Origin: Escherichia phage vB_EcoM_PTE-Eco05
Length of the DNA: 64,000 nucleotides
Reading direction: 5' to 3' (one strand)
Sequence record: PQ306573.1
Shown here: positions 5,606 to 41,546 of the stretch, in pieces
How positions within the stretch are numbered: position 1 is the first letter of the stretch
How the letters are laid out: every line of letters begins with the position of its first letter
The notes under the pieces: model-generated
The model's input: only the letters and a program-made list of their open reading frames with translations
Told to the model about the DNA's origin: nothing
Database searches by the model: none
Translations under genes and position numbers: made by a program

Positions 5606-6052
5606 ATGTCCAAATATTTAACTCGTAAAGACCTTCTGGCAGTTGGCGGTGAAGTTGTTGCAGTAGTTCGTAATGGCGAATACGGTTCTGAAGTTTCTAA
5701 AGAGTTTCGTTCTCGTGAAGGTTTTTACTTCTTCGTTAAAGGTTCATCTGATTGGCGACAAGTAGCAGCACGATTCTTTGTAGGACGTCAACGTTCTAAA
5801 CAAGGGTTGGATGCAATTCTTTCTCACATTCGTCAAGGCCGTTCGCAACTAGCCCGTACCATGGGCACTAACAATATTGAATATGATGTAATCTTTGTTG
5901 CAGCTAAGAACATGAAACCACTGACCACTGGTTATGGTAAAGGTCAATTGGCTCTGGCATTCACTCGCAACCATACATCAGAATATCAAACACTCACTGA
6001 AATGAACCGTCTTCTGGCTGATAATTTCAAATTCATTCTGCAGAGTTACTAA
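5606..6052 (+). CDS. ndd: Nucleoid disruption protein Ndd
   Basis: 148 aa; strong match to remembered T4 Ndd (e.g. RFYVGxQRSKQG, SHIRQxRSQLART, [20 protein letters not shown]). Confidence 0.85.
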
Positions 6053-6104
6053 TTTATACAGGCCTATTAAGTTAGGCCTTTAATTTATTTTTGAGGTAAT
6101 TAAA

Positions 6105-6251
6105 ATGGTATCATGGATTATTGCATTGTTGTGTTGGTCGTTTTTATTCGTTAACACTTTAGTTACAGGCGAAACAACGGTATTTCAACAGGCCGTATCA
6201 CAAGGCACCTTAGCGGTCTTAGCTCTTCTTAACGTGTTAAAAGGCGAGTAA
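6105..6251 (+). CDS. Small hydrophobic membrane peptide (48 aa), possibly ac/52.1-like
   Basis: Not in ORF track; ATG 6105, hydrophobic MVSWIIALLCWSFLFV; stop overlaps next start (TAATG). Confidence 0.35.
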   Translation: MVSWIIALLCWSFLFVNTLVTGETTVFQQAVSQGTLAVLALLNVLKGE

Positions 6252-6391
6252 TGATTAAGAAAATCTTAGCAGGAGCCTTCGGGCTCTTGTTGTTGCTTAC
6301 GGTTCTGTACTACGGTGTGATGTTTGGACTAATCCAAGTAGTGCTTTTCATTTCAGATGTTATAATGGTTATTCGTTCATTAATATGGTGA
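6251..6391 (+). CDS. Small hydrophobic membrane peptide (46 aa)
   Basis: Not in ORF track; MIKKILAGAFGLLLLLTVLYYGV; ends 4 nt before gene 52. Confidence 0.35.
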   Translation: MIKKILAGAFGLLLLLTVLYYGVMFGLIQVVLFISDVIMVIRSLIW

Positions 6392-6395
6392 AAAT

Positions 6396-7721
6396 ATGCA
6401 ATTGAATTCTCGTAATCTAAAAAGTATTATTGATAACGAAGCCTTAGCATATGCGATGTACACCGTTGAAAACCGTGCAATCCCAAACATGATTGATGGA
6501 TTTAAGCCGGTTCAACGTTTTGTGGTTCATCGTGCGTTAGATTTGGCTCGTGGTAATAAAGAAAAATTTCATAAACTTGCGTCAATTGCAGGAGGTGTTG
6601 CAGATTTAGGTTATCACCATGGTGAATCTTCTGCACAAGATGCAGGTGCATTGATGGCTAACACATGGAACAACAACTATCCACTGTTAGATGGCCAAGG
6701 CAACTTTGGTTCTAGAACAGTCCAAAAAGCTGCAGCATCTCGTTATATTTTTGCTCGTGTAAGTAAAAATTTCTATAACGTATATAAAGACACTGAATAT
6801 GCTCCAGCTCATGAAGATAAAGAACATATTCCACCAAAATTCTATCTTCCTATTATTCCGACAGTTCTTTTGAATGGTGTCTCTGGTATTGCAACCGGTT
6901 ACGCAACAAATATTCTGCCTCATAGTTTTAAATCAGTCAAAAAGGCTGTATTACAAGCTCTTCAAGGTAAAAATGTCACTAAGCCAAAAGTTGAATTCCC
7001 GGAATTCCGTGGTGAAGTACATGAAGTTGATGGGCGTTATGAGATTCACGGAACATATAAGTTCACGTCTCGCACTCAAATGCAGATAACTGAAATCCCA
7101 TATAAATTCGACCGTGAAACGTATGTGAGTAAGGTTCTTGACCCGTTGGAAGACAAAGGTCTAATCTCATGGGAAGATGATTGTGGTGAACACGGCTTTG
7201 GGTTTAAGGTGAAGTTCCGTAAAGAGTACTCGCTTCCTGATGATGAAGAGCTACGTCATGAAAAAATCATGAAAGATTTTAGTCTCATCGAACGTCGTTC
7301 ACAAAACATCACAGTGATTAATGAAAAGGGTAAATTAGCGGTCTACGATAACGTAGTGGACTTAATCAAAGATTTTGTTGAAGTCCGTAAGACTTACGTT
7401 CAGAAACGTATTGACAACAAAATCCTTGAATCTGAAAAAGCATTTAAACTGGCTTTTGCTAAGGCGCACTTCATCAAAAAAGTTATCAACGGTGAAATTG
7501 TGATTCAAGGCAAGACTCGTAAAGCTTTGACTGAAGAGCTAGCACAAATCGAAATGTATAAAGAACATGTCGATAAACTGGTAGGTCTTAACATCTTCCA
7601 TATCACTTCCGATGAAGCACGTAAATTAGCAGAAGAAGCTAAAGCTAAGAAAGAAGAAAATGAGTATTGGAAGTCTACTGATGTTGTGACAGAGTACACT
7701 AAAGACTTGGAGGCACTTTGA
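6396..7721 (+). CDS. 52: DNA topoisomerase II medium subunit (GyrA-like)
   Basis: 441 aa; FKPVQRFVVHRAL and YHHGESS motifs; T4 gp52 length. Confidence 0.9.
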   Translation: MQLNSRNLKSIIDNEALAYAMYTVENRAIPNMIDGFKPVQRFVVHRALDLARGNKEKFHKLASIAGGVADLGYHHGESSAQDAGALMANTWNNNYPLLDGQGNFGSRTVQKAAASRYIFARVSKNFYNVYKDTEYAPAHEDKEHIPPKFYLPIIPTVLLNGVSGIATGYATNILPHSFKSVKKAVLQALQGKNVTKPKVEFPEFRGEVHEVDGRYEIHGTYKFTSRTQMQITEIPYKFDRETYVSKVLDPLEDKGLISWEDDCGEHGFGFKVKFRKEYSLPDDEELRHEKIMKDFSLIERRSQNITVINEKGKLAVYDNVVDLIKDFVEVRKTYVQKRIDNKILESEKAFKLAFAKAHFIKKVINGEIVIQGKTRKALTEELAQIEMYKEHVDKLVGLNIFHITSDEARKLAEEAKAKKEENEYWKSTDVVTEYTKDLEAL

Positions 7722-36619: not shown

Positions 36620-36648
36620 TTTACAAACTCTCGGGAGCAGAGTATAAT
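36619..36648 (+). promoter_or_regulatory. T4-type early promoter
   Basis: GTTTAC-N18-TATAAT; inverted repeat GGAGCA/TGCTCC flanks -10. Confidence 0.5.
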
Positions 36649-36976: not shown

Positions 36977-38063
<1,087 letters not shown>

Positions 38064-38255: not shown

Positions 38256-38460
38256 ACATCATGAAATAGAAGATGAAGCATACAAAATGCTTCGTAAACT
38301 AGTGGGACTTAATATGAGTCCTACATTAATCAACAAACTCGCAGGAATTCGTAATGATCTGAATACTCGTTACAAAGGTGAATATCATGTAGAGTTTGTT
38401 CCTGTAGGTGAACCAACCGAGCGATTTGTTGTTCGAGTTAAAGTAAATACTGTGCACTGA
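38236..38460 (+). CDS. Hypothetical small protein
   Basis: 74-aa ORF. Confidence 0.4.
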   Translation: MKTMYDKHHEIEDEAYKMLRKLVGLNMSPTLINKLAGIRNDLNTRYKGEYHVEFVPVGEPTERFVVRVKVNTVH

Positions 38461-38467
38461 GGTAATT

Positions 38468-38743
38468 ATGTTCCCTAAATATTCTGAAATTGTAAAGGTA
38501 GTCTTCAGTCAGATTATTGCTAATAATATGTTTGAAGTGCTTGATAATGCAGCCGAACTCAGAGTTCATGCTCAACTAACTCATGTACTCAATGCTTTGC
38601 TCCCAGACCAAGTAGATTCTATTGCTATTACTCTTCTCCCTGGGTCTGCACACGTCATAGTGGTATTTGATCTTGACGGCGATTTAGTTATCCAATGTGA
38701 TATCAATTTCGGTACACAAAAAATTGAATGCAAAGCAATTTAA
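38468..38743 (+). CDS. Hypothetical small protein
   Basis: 91-aa ORF. Confidence 0.4.
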   Translation: MFPKYSEIVKVVFSQIIANNMFEVLDNAAELRVHAQLTHVLNALLPDQVDSIAITLLPGSAHVIVVFDLDGDLVIQCDINFGTQKIECKAI

Positions 38744-38745
38744 TG

Positions 38746-38775
38746 GTTTACAACATGGTGGAGTTGTGATACTAT
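38746..38775 (+). promoter_or_regulatory. T4-type early promoter
   Basis: GTTTAC-N18-TACTAT. Confidence 0.5.
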
Positions 38776-38803
38776 AACTCTACCAACAAATGAGGAAATA
38801 GAA

Positions 38804-39040
38804 ATGCTAAGTGAAAACCCAATTACAGTACACGAATTTCAGATTAAAGTAAAAGAATTTGCTCAAGCACTCATCAATAAAGTGTCTGAACGTTTCCAAG
38901 ATGCAACATTACGAGTTATTCAAGAATCTCCACGTTCTTTTCTCATAATCGTTAATCCTAAAGATGGTGACCAAATTACTAATCTTAAATTAGGCAGTGA
39001 TGGTCTTGTTGAAGCAACTCGAGTATATGGAACACTATAA
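38804..39040 (+). CDS. Hypothetical small protein
   Basis: 78-aa ORF with GAGGAAA RBS. Confidence 0.45.
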   Translation: MLSENPITVHEFQIKVKEFAQALINKVSERFQDATLRVIQESPRSFLIIVNPKDGDQITNLKLGSDGLVEATRVYGTL

Positions 39041-39160
39041 TGAGAGCTATCTCATTACTATCGAGAATGGTCATAAATCTGAGCACTACCAACTTAGCCT
39101 GTCTAATCCGGTTAAAGGTATTGTTGAATCAGAATCTGTTTATATCTCCTAAGGATTGTT

Positions 39161-40153
39161 ATGTTACCTGTCGTCAGAAAACTTATTTCTCCAAAAGAAC
39201 TGGCTGAGATTATTCCTTTGTCGGAAGCTTACGCATCACAAGTGGCTTCTCATCGCGAACAAGTTAATTCGATTATGAACGGTGAAGACCCACGCAAACT
39301 TATTGTTGTAGGTCCTTGTTCAATTCATGACCCTATTGCTGCTGTTGAATACGGCAAACGTCTGGCTGAACTTCAAACTCGTCTTCCTAATGTTCTGTTA
39401 GTGATGCGCGTTTATTTTGAAAAGCCTCGAACTACCGTAGGTTGGAAAGGTCTTGTAAATGATCCATATCTTGACGGAAGTTTTGATATGAACCACGGTC
39501 TTATAGTTGCACGAACATTGTGTCGTAAACTTCTACGTATGGGACTTCCATTAGCAACTGAAGTATTAGACCCATTCACGATTAAGTATCTTTCTGGTAT
39601 TTTCTCATGGGTTGCTATTGGCGCCCGTACGACTGAAAGTCAGACACATCGTGAAATTGCTTCAGGTCTACCGATGTGCGTAGGCTTCAAGAACGCAACC
39701 AATGGTTCTATTAAAGTAGCTACAGACGCGATGTATAGTGCCGCGCGGCCTCATCGGTATATGGGTATGGACGTCGATGGTACTGTAGGCATTGTTGAAG
39801 CTGAAGGTAATCAGAATACGCATATCGTATTGCGTGGCGGGACTAACGGCCCGAACTATCATTCTTCTGATATTCAAGAAGCTTCTAACAAAGCAAGTGC
39901 AGTAGGTCTGAATCATTATGTAATGGTTGACTGTAGCCATGCAAACGCTGCTGGGCATTATAGCAATCAAATTGGTATTGGTAAAAATTTAGCAGCTAAT
40001 GATTTGGTCAAAGGAATTATGATAGAATCATTCCTACATGAAGGAAATCAAAAAATTTCTGATAATATGTCCTATGGCGTTTCCGTTACTGATGCGTGCA
40101 TCAGTTGGGAACAAACTAAAGAGCTGTTAACTTATATTAATAAGGTTCAATAA
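39161..40153 (+). CDS. 3-deoxy-D-arabino-heptulosonate-7-phosphate (DAHP) synthase, class I (AroG/AroF/AroH-like)
   Basis: 330 aa; motifs VVGPCSIHD, MRVYFEKPRTTVGWKGL, IGARTTESQTHREIASGL, GFKN, RGG, DCSHAN, IESxLHEGNQ, ITDACISWE align with E. coli AroG. Confidence 0.85.
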   Translation: MLPVVRKLISPKELAEIIPLSEAYASQVASHREQVNSIMNGEDPRKLIVVGPCSIHDPIAAVEYGKRLAELQTRLPNVLLVMRVYFEKPRTTVGWKGLVNDPYLDGSFDMNHGLIVARTLCRKLLRMGLPLATEVLDPFTIKYLSGIFSWVAIGARTTESQTHREIASGLPMCVGFKNATNGSIKVATDAMYSAARPHRYMGMDVDGTVGIVEAEGNQNTHIVLRGGTNGPNYHSSDIQEASNKASAVGLNHYVMVDCSHANAAGHYSNQIGIGKNLAANDLVKGIMIESFLHEGNQKISDNMSYGVSVTDACISWEQTKELLTYINKVQ

Positions 40154-40734
40154 TGAAAGCTAGCACATACCTTCAGATTGCATATCTGATTTCTCAAGAA
40201 TCAAAATGTTGTTCATGGAAAGTTGGTGCCGTCATTGAAAAAGATGGACGCATTATTTCTACAGGTTATAATGGCTCTCCTTCAGGTGGTACAAACTGTT
40301 GCGAACATGCATCCGAAAACGGCTGGTTGAAGAATAAACCAAGCCCGGTCATCGTTGCTGGACATAAAGAAGGCACTACAGCATTTGGACGGGCAGATAA
40401 TTTTGTTTTGGCTAAAGAACATCGGGCCGCTCATAGTGCATGGTCTGCTAATAACGAAATCCATGCTGAATTGAATGCCATTTTGTTTGCAGCTCGTAAA
40501 GGTAATTCTATTGAAGGTGCTACGTTATATACGACACTTTCTCCATGTCCTGATTGCACTAAAGCTATCACACAGTCAGGCATTAAAAAGGTTGTATATG
40601 CAGAATTATATGACCGGTCTCCTGAAAATTGGGCAGACATTCTAAAACAAGCCGGTATTGAAGTAATTCAGTACTCTCGTAATAATCTTCGTTCTCTGAA
40701 TTGGGAACAAATTCGAAACTTTTGTGGTGAATAA
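40153..40734 (+). CDS. cd: dCMP deaminase
   Basis: 193 aa; zinc-binding HAELNA ... SPCPDC deaminase motifs; T4 Cd length. Confidence 0.88.
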   Translation: MKASTYLQIAYLISQESKCCSWKVGAVIEKDGRIISTGYNGSPSGGTNCCEHASENGWLKNKPSPVIVAGHKEGTTAFGRADNFVLAKEHRAAHSAWSANNEIHAELNAILFAARKGNSIEGATLYTTLSPCPDCTKAITQSGIKKVVYAELYDRSPENWADILKQAGIEVIQYSRNNLRSLNWEQIRNFCGE

Positions 40735-41032
40735 TATGATTTTAACTGAACAAGAAACTATGGTTCTTCGTGAACGTATTAAAACTATTCTGTCTGTAGG
40801 TGTTCATTGTGTTGTATTTGAAAAGGCTAATGGTGATGTTCGTACGATGTTTGCCTCCCGTGATGAACTTGAAGTCAAATATGAAAATAGTAACCCATCA
40901 ACAGAAGTTCGTTCTGAACCTCGTGAATCAGTTCGAGCATTCGATACCAAGTTAGGTCAGTGGCGTTCTTTCCGCCTTGATAAAGTAATTTCGGTTGATG
41001 GTACTCCGGTAGAACGTTTGCTTCTTATGTAA
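40724..41032 (+). CDS. Hypothetical protein (31.x position)
   Basis: 102-aa ORF. Confidence 0.45.
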   Translation: MVNNMILTEQETMVLRERIKTILSVGVHCVVFEKANGDVRTMFASRDELEVKYENSNPSTEVRSEPRESVRAFDTKLGQWRSFRLDKVISVDGTPVERLLLM

Positions 41033-41089
41033 TATGCTTTACGAATAGTATGGTATTATTAATCTATCGTCAAACAACAAGGAAATAAG

Positions 41090-41422: not shown

Positions 41423-41546
41423 TATAAATAACTATATGAAGAGAACACTCTTCTAAGCGGTAGCCTACAACTGAGAGACTTGTCGAAAGAAGGTGAAATT
41501 CAGACGAACGTGGCTACTAAATATTATCTCGAATTGAGAATTTAAA

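Follow-up and report, generated by a model that had tools for sequence, protein, structure and literature searches.

A DAHP synthase gene between pseT and cd

Escherichia phage vB_EcoM_PTE-Eco05 (PQ306573.1) carries a plus-strand open reading frame (ORF) of 330 codons directly upstream of the dCMP deaminase gene cd. It lies within a 64,000-nucleotide stretch of DNA, analyzed here as a whole and referred to as the window. A first-pass annotation, made from the sequence alone, had read this ORF as a class I 3-deoxy-7-phosphoheptulonate synthase (DAHP synthase, DAHPS), the shikimate pathway's entry enzyme, and had suggested that it could bypass host feedback inhibition. Here, we describe the encoded enzyme, its altered inhibitor pocket and the way in which its gene appears to have reached this locus. 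The features of the locus are as follows:

37164-38063, plus strand: polynucleotide kinase/phosphatase (pseT), the left landmark of the syntenic pseT-cd interval
38804-39040, plus strand: resident cd.2 homologue (DUF7320), adjoining the insert on its upstream side
39151-39155, plus strand: Shine-Dalgarno-like AAGGA, read from the sequence, 5 nt before the DAHPS ATG and overlapping the stop codon of an upstream remnant ORF
39161-40153, plus strand: DAHPS coding sequence, 330 aa, type I-alpha, AroF-like lineage, phage clade PHROG 5045
40153-40734, plus strand: dCMP deaminase (cd), from the ORF listing and Pfam, its start overlapping the DAHPS stop

The ORF is intact and begins with ATG. The short N-terminus of its product is real, because an in-frame TGA lies 12 codons 5' of this ATG, with no ATG, GTG or TTG in between. 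At the other end, the final base of the TAA stop (40151-40153) is also the first base of the cd start codon ATG (40153-40155), and this one-base overlap probably couples DAHPS translationally to cd. The gene order in the window is pseT, four small DUF genes (cd.4, an unnamed ORF, cd.3 and cd.2), DAHPS, cd and gp31.1. As the first-pass annotation had said, the corresponding interval of T4 holds only small ORFs, namely cd.5, cd.4, cd.3, cd.2 and cd.1, and relative to both T4 and RB69 the DAHPS gene is a genuine insertion directly upstream of cd.

Profile searches assigned the protein to the DAHP synthases. It matches Pfam DAHP_synth_1 (PF00793) with E = 2e-75 and 253.5 bits against a cut-off of 25.5, NCBIfam TIGR00034 aroFGH with 428.8 bits against a curated cut-off of 173.2, and PRK12755 with 457.1 bits against 343. 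The isozyme-specific NCBIfam equivalogs were missed, with 365.6 against 568 bits for the AroG model and 385.6 against 463 bits for the AroH model. The closest solved relative is the Tyr-sensitive AroF of E. coli (6AGM, E = 5e-105), the alignment beginning at AroF residue 16, and identity to the E. coli K-12 proteins (NC_000913) amounts to 51% for AroF, 47% for AroG and 44% for AroH. Six of the seven class I motifs quoted in the first-pass annotation are present (residues 51-57, 88-98, 153-165, 175-178, 257-262, and 215-218 plus 294-297), while the seventh reads VTDACISWE (309-317) and is absent in the quoted form ITDACISWE.

A residue alignment with AroG shows that the catalytic machinery is complete. 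The metal ligands C53, H260, E289 and D311 (Cys61, His268, Glu302 and Asp326 in AroG) are kept, as are the phosphoenolpyruvate (PEP) residues R83, K88, G154, A155, R156, K177 and R225 (R92, K97, G163, A164, R165, K186 and R234 in AroG). The erythrose-4-phosphate (E4P) motif K88-P89-R90-T91-T92 is present as well; KPRT(T/S) is what tells DAHPS and KDO8P synthase apart. Across the 25 phage-clade and 98 bacterial sequences compared, none of the metal, PEP and E4P residues varies. Loss of metal- or PEP-binding residues had been named beforehand as a finding that would speak against the assignment, and none was seen on alignment. KDO8P synthase was ruled out, as all NCBIfam matches are to DAHP synthase models and the KPRTT motif is there.

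We also built an AlphaFold2 model from a 43-sequence alignment (mean predicted local confidence, pLDDT, 92.4; predicted template modeling score, pTM, 0.92). It shows the (beta/alpha)8 barrel together with the beta6a/6b insertion typical of subclass I-alpha, the hairpin being predicted at strands 198-203, 209-214 and 220-224. Foldseek superposed the model onto 4HSO, 8E0U and 1GG1, DAHP synthases of Neisseria meningitidis and E. coli, with TM scores of 0.94-0.96 and root mean square deviations of 1.5-1.8 Å. Judging from profiles, residue alignment and predicted fold, the protein is a bona fide type I-alpha DAHP synthase whose catalytic residues are all intact, and its family assignment is secure. 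It would thus be expected to form DAHP and phosphate from PEP and E4P in a metal-dependent reaction.

A rebuilt inhibitor pocket

In co-crystal structures of AroG with Phe and of AroF with Tyr, the conserved residues Q151/Q152 and S180/S181 bind the main chain of the inhibitor (PMC9529685). According to the same paper, D155/D156 forms a stabilizing salt bridge, and the variants P150L, D146N, S180F, L175D, L179A, F209A/S and V221A are feedback resistant. A gap-free local alignment of AroG with the phage protein pairs P150 with I141, Q151 with K142, D155 with G146, S180 with P171, F209 with Y200 and K214 with V205. AroG residues 1-9 have no counterpart in the phage protein. AroF-type P148 and G212 persist as P138 and G202, and neither D146 nor L179 has changed.

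We then scanned the alignment, blind to the published positions, for columns that are at least 90% conserved in each of the 25 phage-clade and 98 bacterial sequences and differ in their consensus. Only six of about 340 columns qualify, corresponding to AroG P150I, Q151K, D155G, S180P, F209Y and T223A. Five of the six clade-separating columns are published inhibitor-site or resistance positions, and the sixth (223) lies two residues from V221. The replacing residues I141, K142, G146, P171, Y200 and A214 are kept in 24-25 of the 25 clade members, which span 55-99% identity. Furthermore, every member of the phage clade has 0-3 residues before the position of AroG I10, compared to 7-44 in 97 of the 98 bacterial sequences. 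We take this N-terminal segment (AroG 1-9 with D6 and D7; N8 in AroF) to complete the inhibitor site of the partner subunit; its role in feedback control of E. coli AroF and AroG was reportedly described in Jossek 2001 and Zhang 2014.

The hallmarks of the feedback-regulated AroF, AroG and AroH enzymes, i.e., Gln151/152, Ser180/181, Pro150/151, the Asp155/156 salt bridge and the N-terminal segment, are all missing from the phage protein. Because the inhibitor pocket is rebuilt and the segment that closes it is deleted, the phage enzyme is probably insensitive to feedback by Tyr, Phe and Trp. The feedback bypass suggested by the first-pass annotation is thus the reading that the sequence favors, with the pocket changed at published resistance positions.

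In a neighbor-joining tree (Kimura distances, 200 bootstraps) the phage clade is nested among AroF-like sequences and monophyletic in 200 of 200 replicates. This topology suggests that one ancestral AroF-like gene entered the T4-like phages, where the catalytic machinery has been kept and a set of changes fixed in the inhibitor pocket. Across genera, identity to the proteins of the window is 58-77% for DAHPS, 46-67% for pseT, 65-84% for cd and 44-86% for gp31, so that DAHPS tracks its neighbors. Its GC content at third codon positions (GC3) is 0.287, as in the adjacent phage genes. A recent capture from the E. coli host was rejected in view of the 44-51% identity to AroF, AroG and AroH and a GC3 of 0.29 compared to 0.50-0.57 in aroF, aroG and aroH.

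Two bacterial metagenomic sequences (P0109 and P0110) are sister to the phage clade in this tree. P0110 (JGI metagenome contig, 6001-7083) encodes a DAHP synthase near UvrC, a response regulator and an ABC transporter, and has two phage-clade indels in common; since this genomic context is bacterial, a closer donor was not identified. LQPMAAGY and GLPM replace the canonical inhibitor-site motifs in P0110, which may represent a bacterial subgroup that is naturally regulated in a different way. Q151 and S180 are also missing in the two bacterial sequences that group with the phage clade and in a remote homologue carried independently by Aeromonas phage HJ05, to which we return below.

Insertion footprint, distribution and diversity

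Comparison with RB69, which lacks the gene, delimits the insertion. Its parts are as follows:

39038-39055, plus strand: left junction, TAATGAGAGCTATCTCAT, matching the true cd.2-stop/cd-start sequence (40151-40168) at 15 of 18 positions
39042-39152, plus strand: remnant of a donor cd.2 3' end, encoding ESYLITIENGHKSEHYQLSLSNPVKGIVESESVYIS followed by a stop; 110 bases between the left junction and the DAHPS start
39056-40149, plus strand: insert body of ~1.1 kb (1,094 bp), absent from RB69 and 98.7-99.7% identical in 139 Mosigvirus records
40151-40168, plus strand: right junction, TAATGAAAGCTAGCACAT, the overlap of DAHPS stop and cd start, where RB69 homology resumes

RB69 and the window are homologous over 38400-39055 and again from 40150 on. 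In RB69 the stop of cd.2 overlaps the start of cd in a clean junction, CTATAATGAAAGCTAGCACAT, and that sequence occurs in the window where DAHPS meets cd (40151-40168). The sequence at the left junction was probably the microhomology used for the left crossover. The remnant matches the C-terminal half of cd.2 homologues, namely those of Enterobacter phage Entb_45 (51% over 39 aa, E = 2e-7) and Klebsiella phage PhiKpNIH-6 (55% over 33 aa, E = 8e-6); cd.2 precedes DAHPS in both of these phages. Because the insert carries a foreign cd.2 fragment, its donor was another T4-like phage. We thus read the insert, from its sequence, as the 3' part of a foreign cd.2, the DAHPS gene and the start of cd, apparently joined on the left at a microhomology to the resident cd start and on the right by homology within cd.

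A small plus-strand ORF at 38997/39000-39152, annotated in GenBank as a 'hypothetical protein' (e.g., JK45 gp197), is chimeric: the 5' part runs out of frame over the end of the resident cd.2, and the 3' two-thirds (ORF 38997-39152) are the C-terminal remnant of the foreign cd.2 brought with the DAHPS cassette. A real gene at this position was therefore rejected in favor of a chimeric remnant.

With a query reaching from pseT to gp31.1, 139 records give full coverage, and RB69 and JK36 only 72%, in two pieces. Conversely, a query of the RB69 junction is found uninterrupted at ≥94% identity in RB69, ECO111 5-P, vB_Eco_mar005P1, JK42, JK36 and moha, and at ~78% in WG01, QL01 and relatives of the neighboring genus. 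Since RB69, five other Mosigvirus phages and the WG01/QL01 relatives all have an intact junction, the empty cd.2/cd site is probably ancestral. A secondary deletion in RB69 between direct repeats is less likely than a gain, given the empty junction of WG01/QL01 and the truncated foreign cd.2 in the insert. The RB69 reference (NC_004928) shows, relative to the window, three single-base insertions within ~50 nt near the 3' end of cd (segment 2855-2915, equivalent to 40640-40700 of the window), and its cd is annotated with 169 aa compared to 193 aa, possibly reflecting a sequencing error or a real frameshift.

The gene is already known. The protein matches PHROG 5045, annotated as 'phospho-2-dehydro-3-deoxyheptonate aldolase' in the class of morons and auxiliary metabolic genes, with 602.6 bits (residues 1-330 against 8-337 of a 341-residue profile). 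Megablast matches to the gene came from 145 phage records, of which 139 reach ≥95% identity; most are already annotated as DAHP synthase, aroF or AroG. A protein identical at 100% is deposited for the Mosigvirus vB_EcoM_G2285. With tblastn, a homologue was found in 212 phage records, the ORF being full-length and intact in all 212; homologues at 58-77% identity occur in Enterobacter, Edwardsiella, Klebsiella, Serratia, Erwinia, Escherichia (EcS1) and Proteus phages. One preprint lists the gene as a Mosigvirus auxiliary gene of unknown function and the phiC120 genome paper mentions the domain; beyond such passing mentions, our literature searches returned no experimental work on the phage gene. 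DAHPS is among the more common host-like metabolic genes of Enterobacterales T4-like phages, catalogued in hundreds of genomes but uncharacterized, and the copy in the window is a PHROG 5045 member without differences of substance. The first-pass annotation had called it unexpected in a virulent phage of this type, a description that these records do not bear out.

We opened genomes of five other genera (Kanagawavirus, Marfavirus, Winklervirus, Bragavirus and Kagamiyamavirus), and in all of them the gene also occupies the pseT-cd interval. One or two small ORFs separate DAHPS from cd in Winklervirus, Kagamiyamavirus and Bragavirus, and only Mosigvirus, among the T4-like genera with PHROG 5045 that we examined, has the donor-cd.2 remnant and the one-base overlap with cd. 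In the Bragavirus Proteus phage PM2, a homing endonuclease gene (1106-1822) sits between pseT and DAHPS and is a possible driver of local gene conversion.

Within Mosigvirus the gene is present in roughly 93% of records. Whether it might be ubiquitous core content of the genus had been raised beforehand: it is near-ubiquitous, as the 139 Mosigvirus records show, but it is not core, as about six distinct phages lack it. A strictly core gene was rejected on the uninterrupted cd.2/cd junctions of RB69, ECO111 5-P, mar005P1 (LR0273xx records), JK42, JK36 and moha. The vB_Eco_mar005P1 records LR027383/86/87/90/91 have the empty junction, and 'Mosigvirus mar005p1' (OZ035759.1) carries the DAHPS insert; these are either different phages or a naming problem. 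RefSeq files Shigella phage JK45 (NC_054940) under Tequatrovirus; its pseT-cd region contains the Mosigvirus DAHPS insert and shows 97-99% identity to Mosigvirus phages.

The insert is also low in diversity. Among four phages with the gene (window, JK45, ESh27 and p000v), synonymous divergence (dS) is 0.018-0.031 in DAHPS, 0.14-0.31 in pseT and 0.15-0.25 in cd, and the diversity of the insert is ~10x lower than that of its flanks. Nucleotide diversity (pi) in sliding windows is 0.000-0.012 over 39112-40161 and rises to 0.076 in the following 150 bases. The first variable sites to the right of the insert are at 40170, and on the left the cd.2 of p000v shows RB69-type variants as far as the edge of the insert. 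Likewise, the surrounding 3.9 kb are 94-98% identical across the 139 records, compared to 98.7-99.7% for the insert. The ratio of nonsynonymous to synonymous divergence (dN/dS) of DAHPS within Mosigvirus is 0-0.37, based on only 5-11 substitutions per comparison.

This diversity trough is in line with one comparatively recent acquisition, carried into diverged backgrounds by recombination. It is also expected if variation enters the flanks from relatives lacking DAHPS while the insert finds no recombination partner. Patches of high diversity are found at 37464-37613 (in pseT) and 38514-38811 (cd.3 and spacer), with pi of 0.13-0.24 compared to 0.02-0.04 nearby, which suggests mosaic replacement via recombination with more distant phages.

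Expression, proposed role and comparison with known enzymes

ORFs run head to tail on the plus strand from about 36.4 to 41.0 kb, and no plus-strand terminator was predicted in this string. The best sigma-70-like site lies at 36620-36648 (11/12), in a scan that was overall not above shuffled expectation. Scans for sigma-70-like, MotA-box-like and late TATAAATA motifs found none directly upstream of DAHPS, and a promoter of its own was rejected on this ground. MotA-box-like matches lie inside pseT and cd.3, and the only nearby late-type TATAAATA is at 41423. The gene is apparently transcribed together with pseT and cd, both of which are prereplicative in T4. The early or middle expression context given in the first-pass annotation would agree with this tightly packed same-strand string.

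MotA-box-like sites (TGCTT-N13-15-TANNNT) are enriched in the window as a whole, mostly on the plus strand, with 24 matches compared to 12.5 expected, a number that none of 100 shuffles reached. A textbook-looking site lies at 41035-41059, upstream of gene 31. The gp31.1 homologue (40724-41032, plus strand) matches Pfam WYL_2 (Sm-like SH3 barrel); several GenBank records name it 'tail fiber protein', which looks like annotation drift.

With these data at hand, we favor, with reasonable though far from full confidence, the view that this gene encodes a catalytically competent, feedback-insensitive phage DAHPS of AroF descent, which is co-expressed with pseT and cd and was acquired by transfer between phages. 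Upon infection, host transcription stops and the host AroG, AroF and AroH can no longer be resynthesized; the resident enzymes are feedback-inhibited and their genes subject to TyrR/TrpR repression. The phage enzyme could run the same flux-controlling reaction while ignoring the end products, so that carbon would keep entering the shikimate pathway. Chorismate flow could thereby be sustained toward aromatic amino acids and possibly toward folate, quinones and prephenate-dependent tRNA modification. Candidate beneficiaries are the aromatic amino acids for the phage protein burst, and p-aminobenzoate/folate for synthesis of dTMP and hydroxymethyl-dCMP (hm-dCMP). In Mosigvirus, the 1.1-kb fragment with donor cd.2 3' end, DAHPS and cd start arrived from another T4-like phage and has spread to ~93% of the sequenced members.

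Several observations weigh against this view. The replacement residues are strictly conserved in a clade with only ~55% identity as a whole; drift would be expected in a dead site, so the pocket may still serve some function. F209Y is a conservative change, D146 and L179 are kept, and the feedback role of the N-terminus draws on the two reports named above. Literature searches found no enzyme assay, complementation or expression data for any clade member. The low diversity of the insert can arise without a sweep, as related phages have no homologue for exchange. Finally, RB69 and about five further members of Mosigvirus do without the gene. It is dispensable in the laboratory, as the viability of RB69 shows, and any benefit would therefore be conditional.

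An ordinary regulated isozyme, still inhibited (most likely by tyrosine, in view of its AroF-like descent) and simply raising the amount of DAHP synthase, would be in line with the Tyr-sensitive AroF as closest solved relative, with the retained P138/G202, D146 and L179 and with the beta6a/6b regulatory hairpin in the predicted model. We nevertheless regard it as unlikely, because K and P stand in place of both residues that form hydrogen bonds with the inhibitor backbone (Q151/Q152 and S180/S181), P150 has given way to I where P150L gives full feedback resistance in AroG, the D155 salt bridge and the N-terminal segment are lost, and the equivalog cut-offs of NCBIfam for AroG and AroH are not reached. 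The pocket could instead have been re-tuned to a different effector relevant during infection, such as a nucleotide or an anionic metabolite (chorismate or prephenate, for instance). Such re-purposing is conceivable because the replacement residues themselves are near-invariant, while AroG position 214 drifts freely within the phage clade. Moreover, the Q-to-K and D-to-G changes would make the pocket more positive, and a nucleotide effector would have an analogy in the adjoining cd, annotated in the T4 and RB69 records as activated by hydroxymethyl-dCTP/dCTP. This conservation could, however, reflect packing of the dimer interface after loss of the N-terminal strand, no conserved partner gene suggesting a new metabolite travels with DAHPS in the five other genera, and the ligand is a proposal made from the sequence. 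On balance, we find re-tuned allostery improbable as well, marginally more so than the regulated isozyme.

A non-canonical chemistry or purpose appears very improbable. The enzyme might use another aldose phosphate, as KDO8P synthase does, drain PEP and E4P, or feed a sugar pathway for DNA modification; PF00793 also takes in KDO8P synthases, and the gene lies among genes of nucleotide metabolism. Yet the DAHPS-specific KPRTT motif and the Cys metal ligand are invariant, the best NCBIfam matches are all DAHP synthase models, and no further sugar-pathway gene accompanies DAHPS in the six genera. The hydroxymethylcytosine of RB69 is reported to be arabinosylated; since RB69 lacks the gene, DAHPS cannot be required for RB69-type DNA modification, and a link to arabinosyl-hydroxymethylcytosine was rejected. 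Least probable of all is a functionless passenger, hitch-hiking or decaying in a plastic region. The pseT-cd interval is indeed variable and rich in small ORFs of unknown function, and some members of the genus lack the gene. However, the ORF is intact in all 212 records, its catalytic residues are conserved in every clade member, it occupies the same locus in at least six genera with a divergence on par with its core neighbors, and it is found in nearly all Mosigvirus records.

If the enzyme is indeed feedback-insensitive, lytic coliphages would purposely free the committed step in aromatic and chorismate biosynthesis from regulation. This would point to a metabolic bottleneck during infection, be it in aromatic amino acids, folate, quinones or prephenate-dependent tRNA modification, and would offer a ready-made, evolution-tested scaffold of a feedback-resistant DAHP synthase for the production of aromatic compounds. 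Re-tuned allostery, in turn, would reveal a new allosteric logic for type I-alpha DAHP synthases. Taken with how widely the cassette has spread in Mosigvirus, it would testify to strong selection on phages to control shikimate flux. Because some phages naturally lack the gene (RB69, JK36, JK42 and moha, among others) and the rest carry it, this presence/absence polymorphism provides near-isogenic phages in which a benefit can be tested, and the insertion footprint is a record of gene transfer between T4-like genera. What our analysis adds to a catalogued gene is a testable prediction of feedback insensitivity or re-tuned allostery, the footprint of inter-phage transfer, and the polymorphism with its diversity trough.

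Among known systems, E. coli AroF (6AGM/6AGL), 51% identical along the whole protein, has the metal, PEP and E4P residues, P148 and G212, and the (beta/alpha)8 barrel with beta6a/6b hairpin in common with the phage protein. The latter differs by lacking ~9 N-terminal residues, by the replacement of P151, Q152, D156, S181 and F210 with I, K, G, P and Y, and by 5- and 3-residue deletions near C-terminal barrel loops and a shorter C-terminus; the GC3 of its gene is 0.29, compared to 0.50 in aroF. The homologue of Aeromonas phage HJ05 (2899-4062 of a 79-kb, non-T4-like genome), annotated as hypothetical only, is likewise a phage-borne PF00793-type protein without Q151 and S180 (LDPTLAHLL, GLPY). 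It differs by its 38% identity, a long N-terminal extension, a divergent E4P motif region (EKPRTGQGWKG), a position outside the T4-like clade and another genomic context. Engineered or selected feedback-resistant variants (AroG P150L, S180F, D146N, F209A and Q151 variants; Corynebacterium glutamicum AroF P155L/E154N) carry single or double changes in otherwise regulated enzymes. The phage enzyme resembles them in being naturally non-wild-type at positions 150, 151, 180 and 209 and in having lost the D155 salt bridge. Unlike these laboratory variants, the phage clade joins five or six fixed changes with an N-terminal deletion, a combination that would be predicted to confer resistance.

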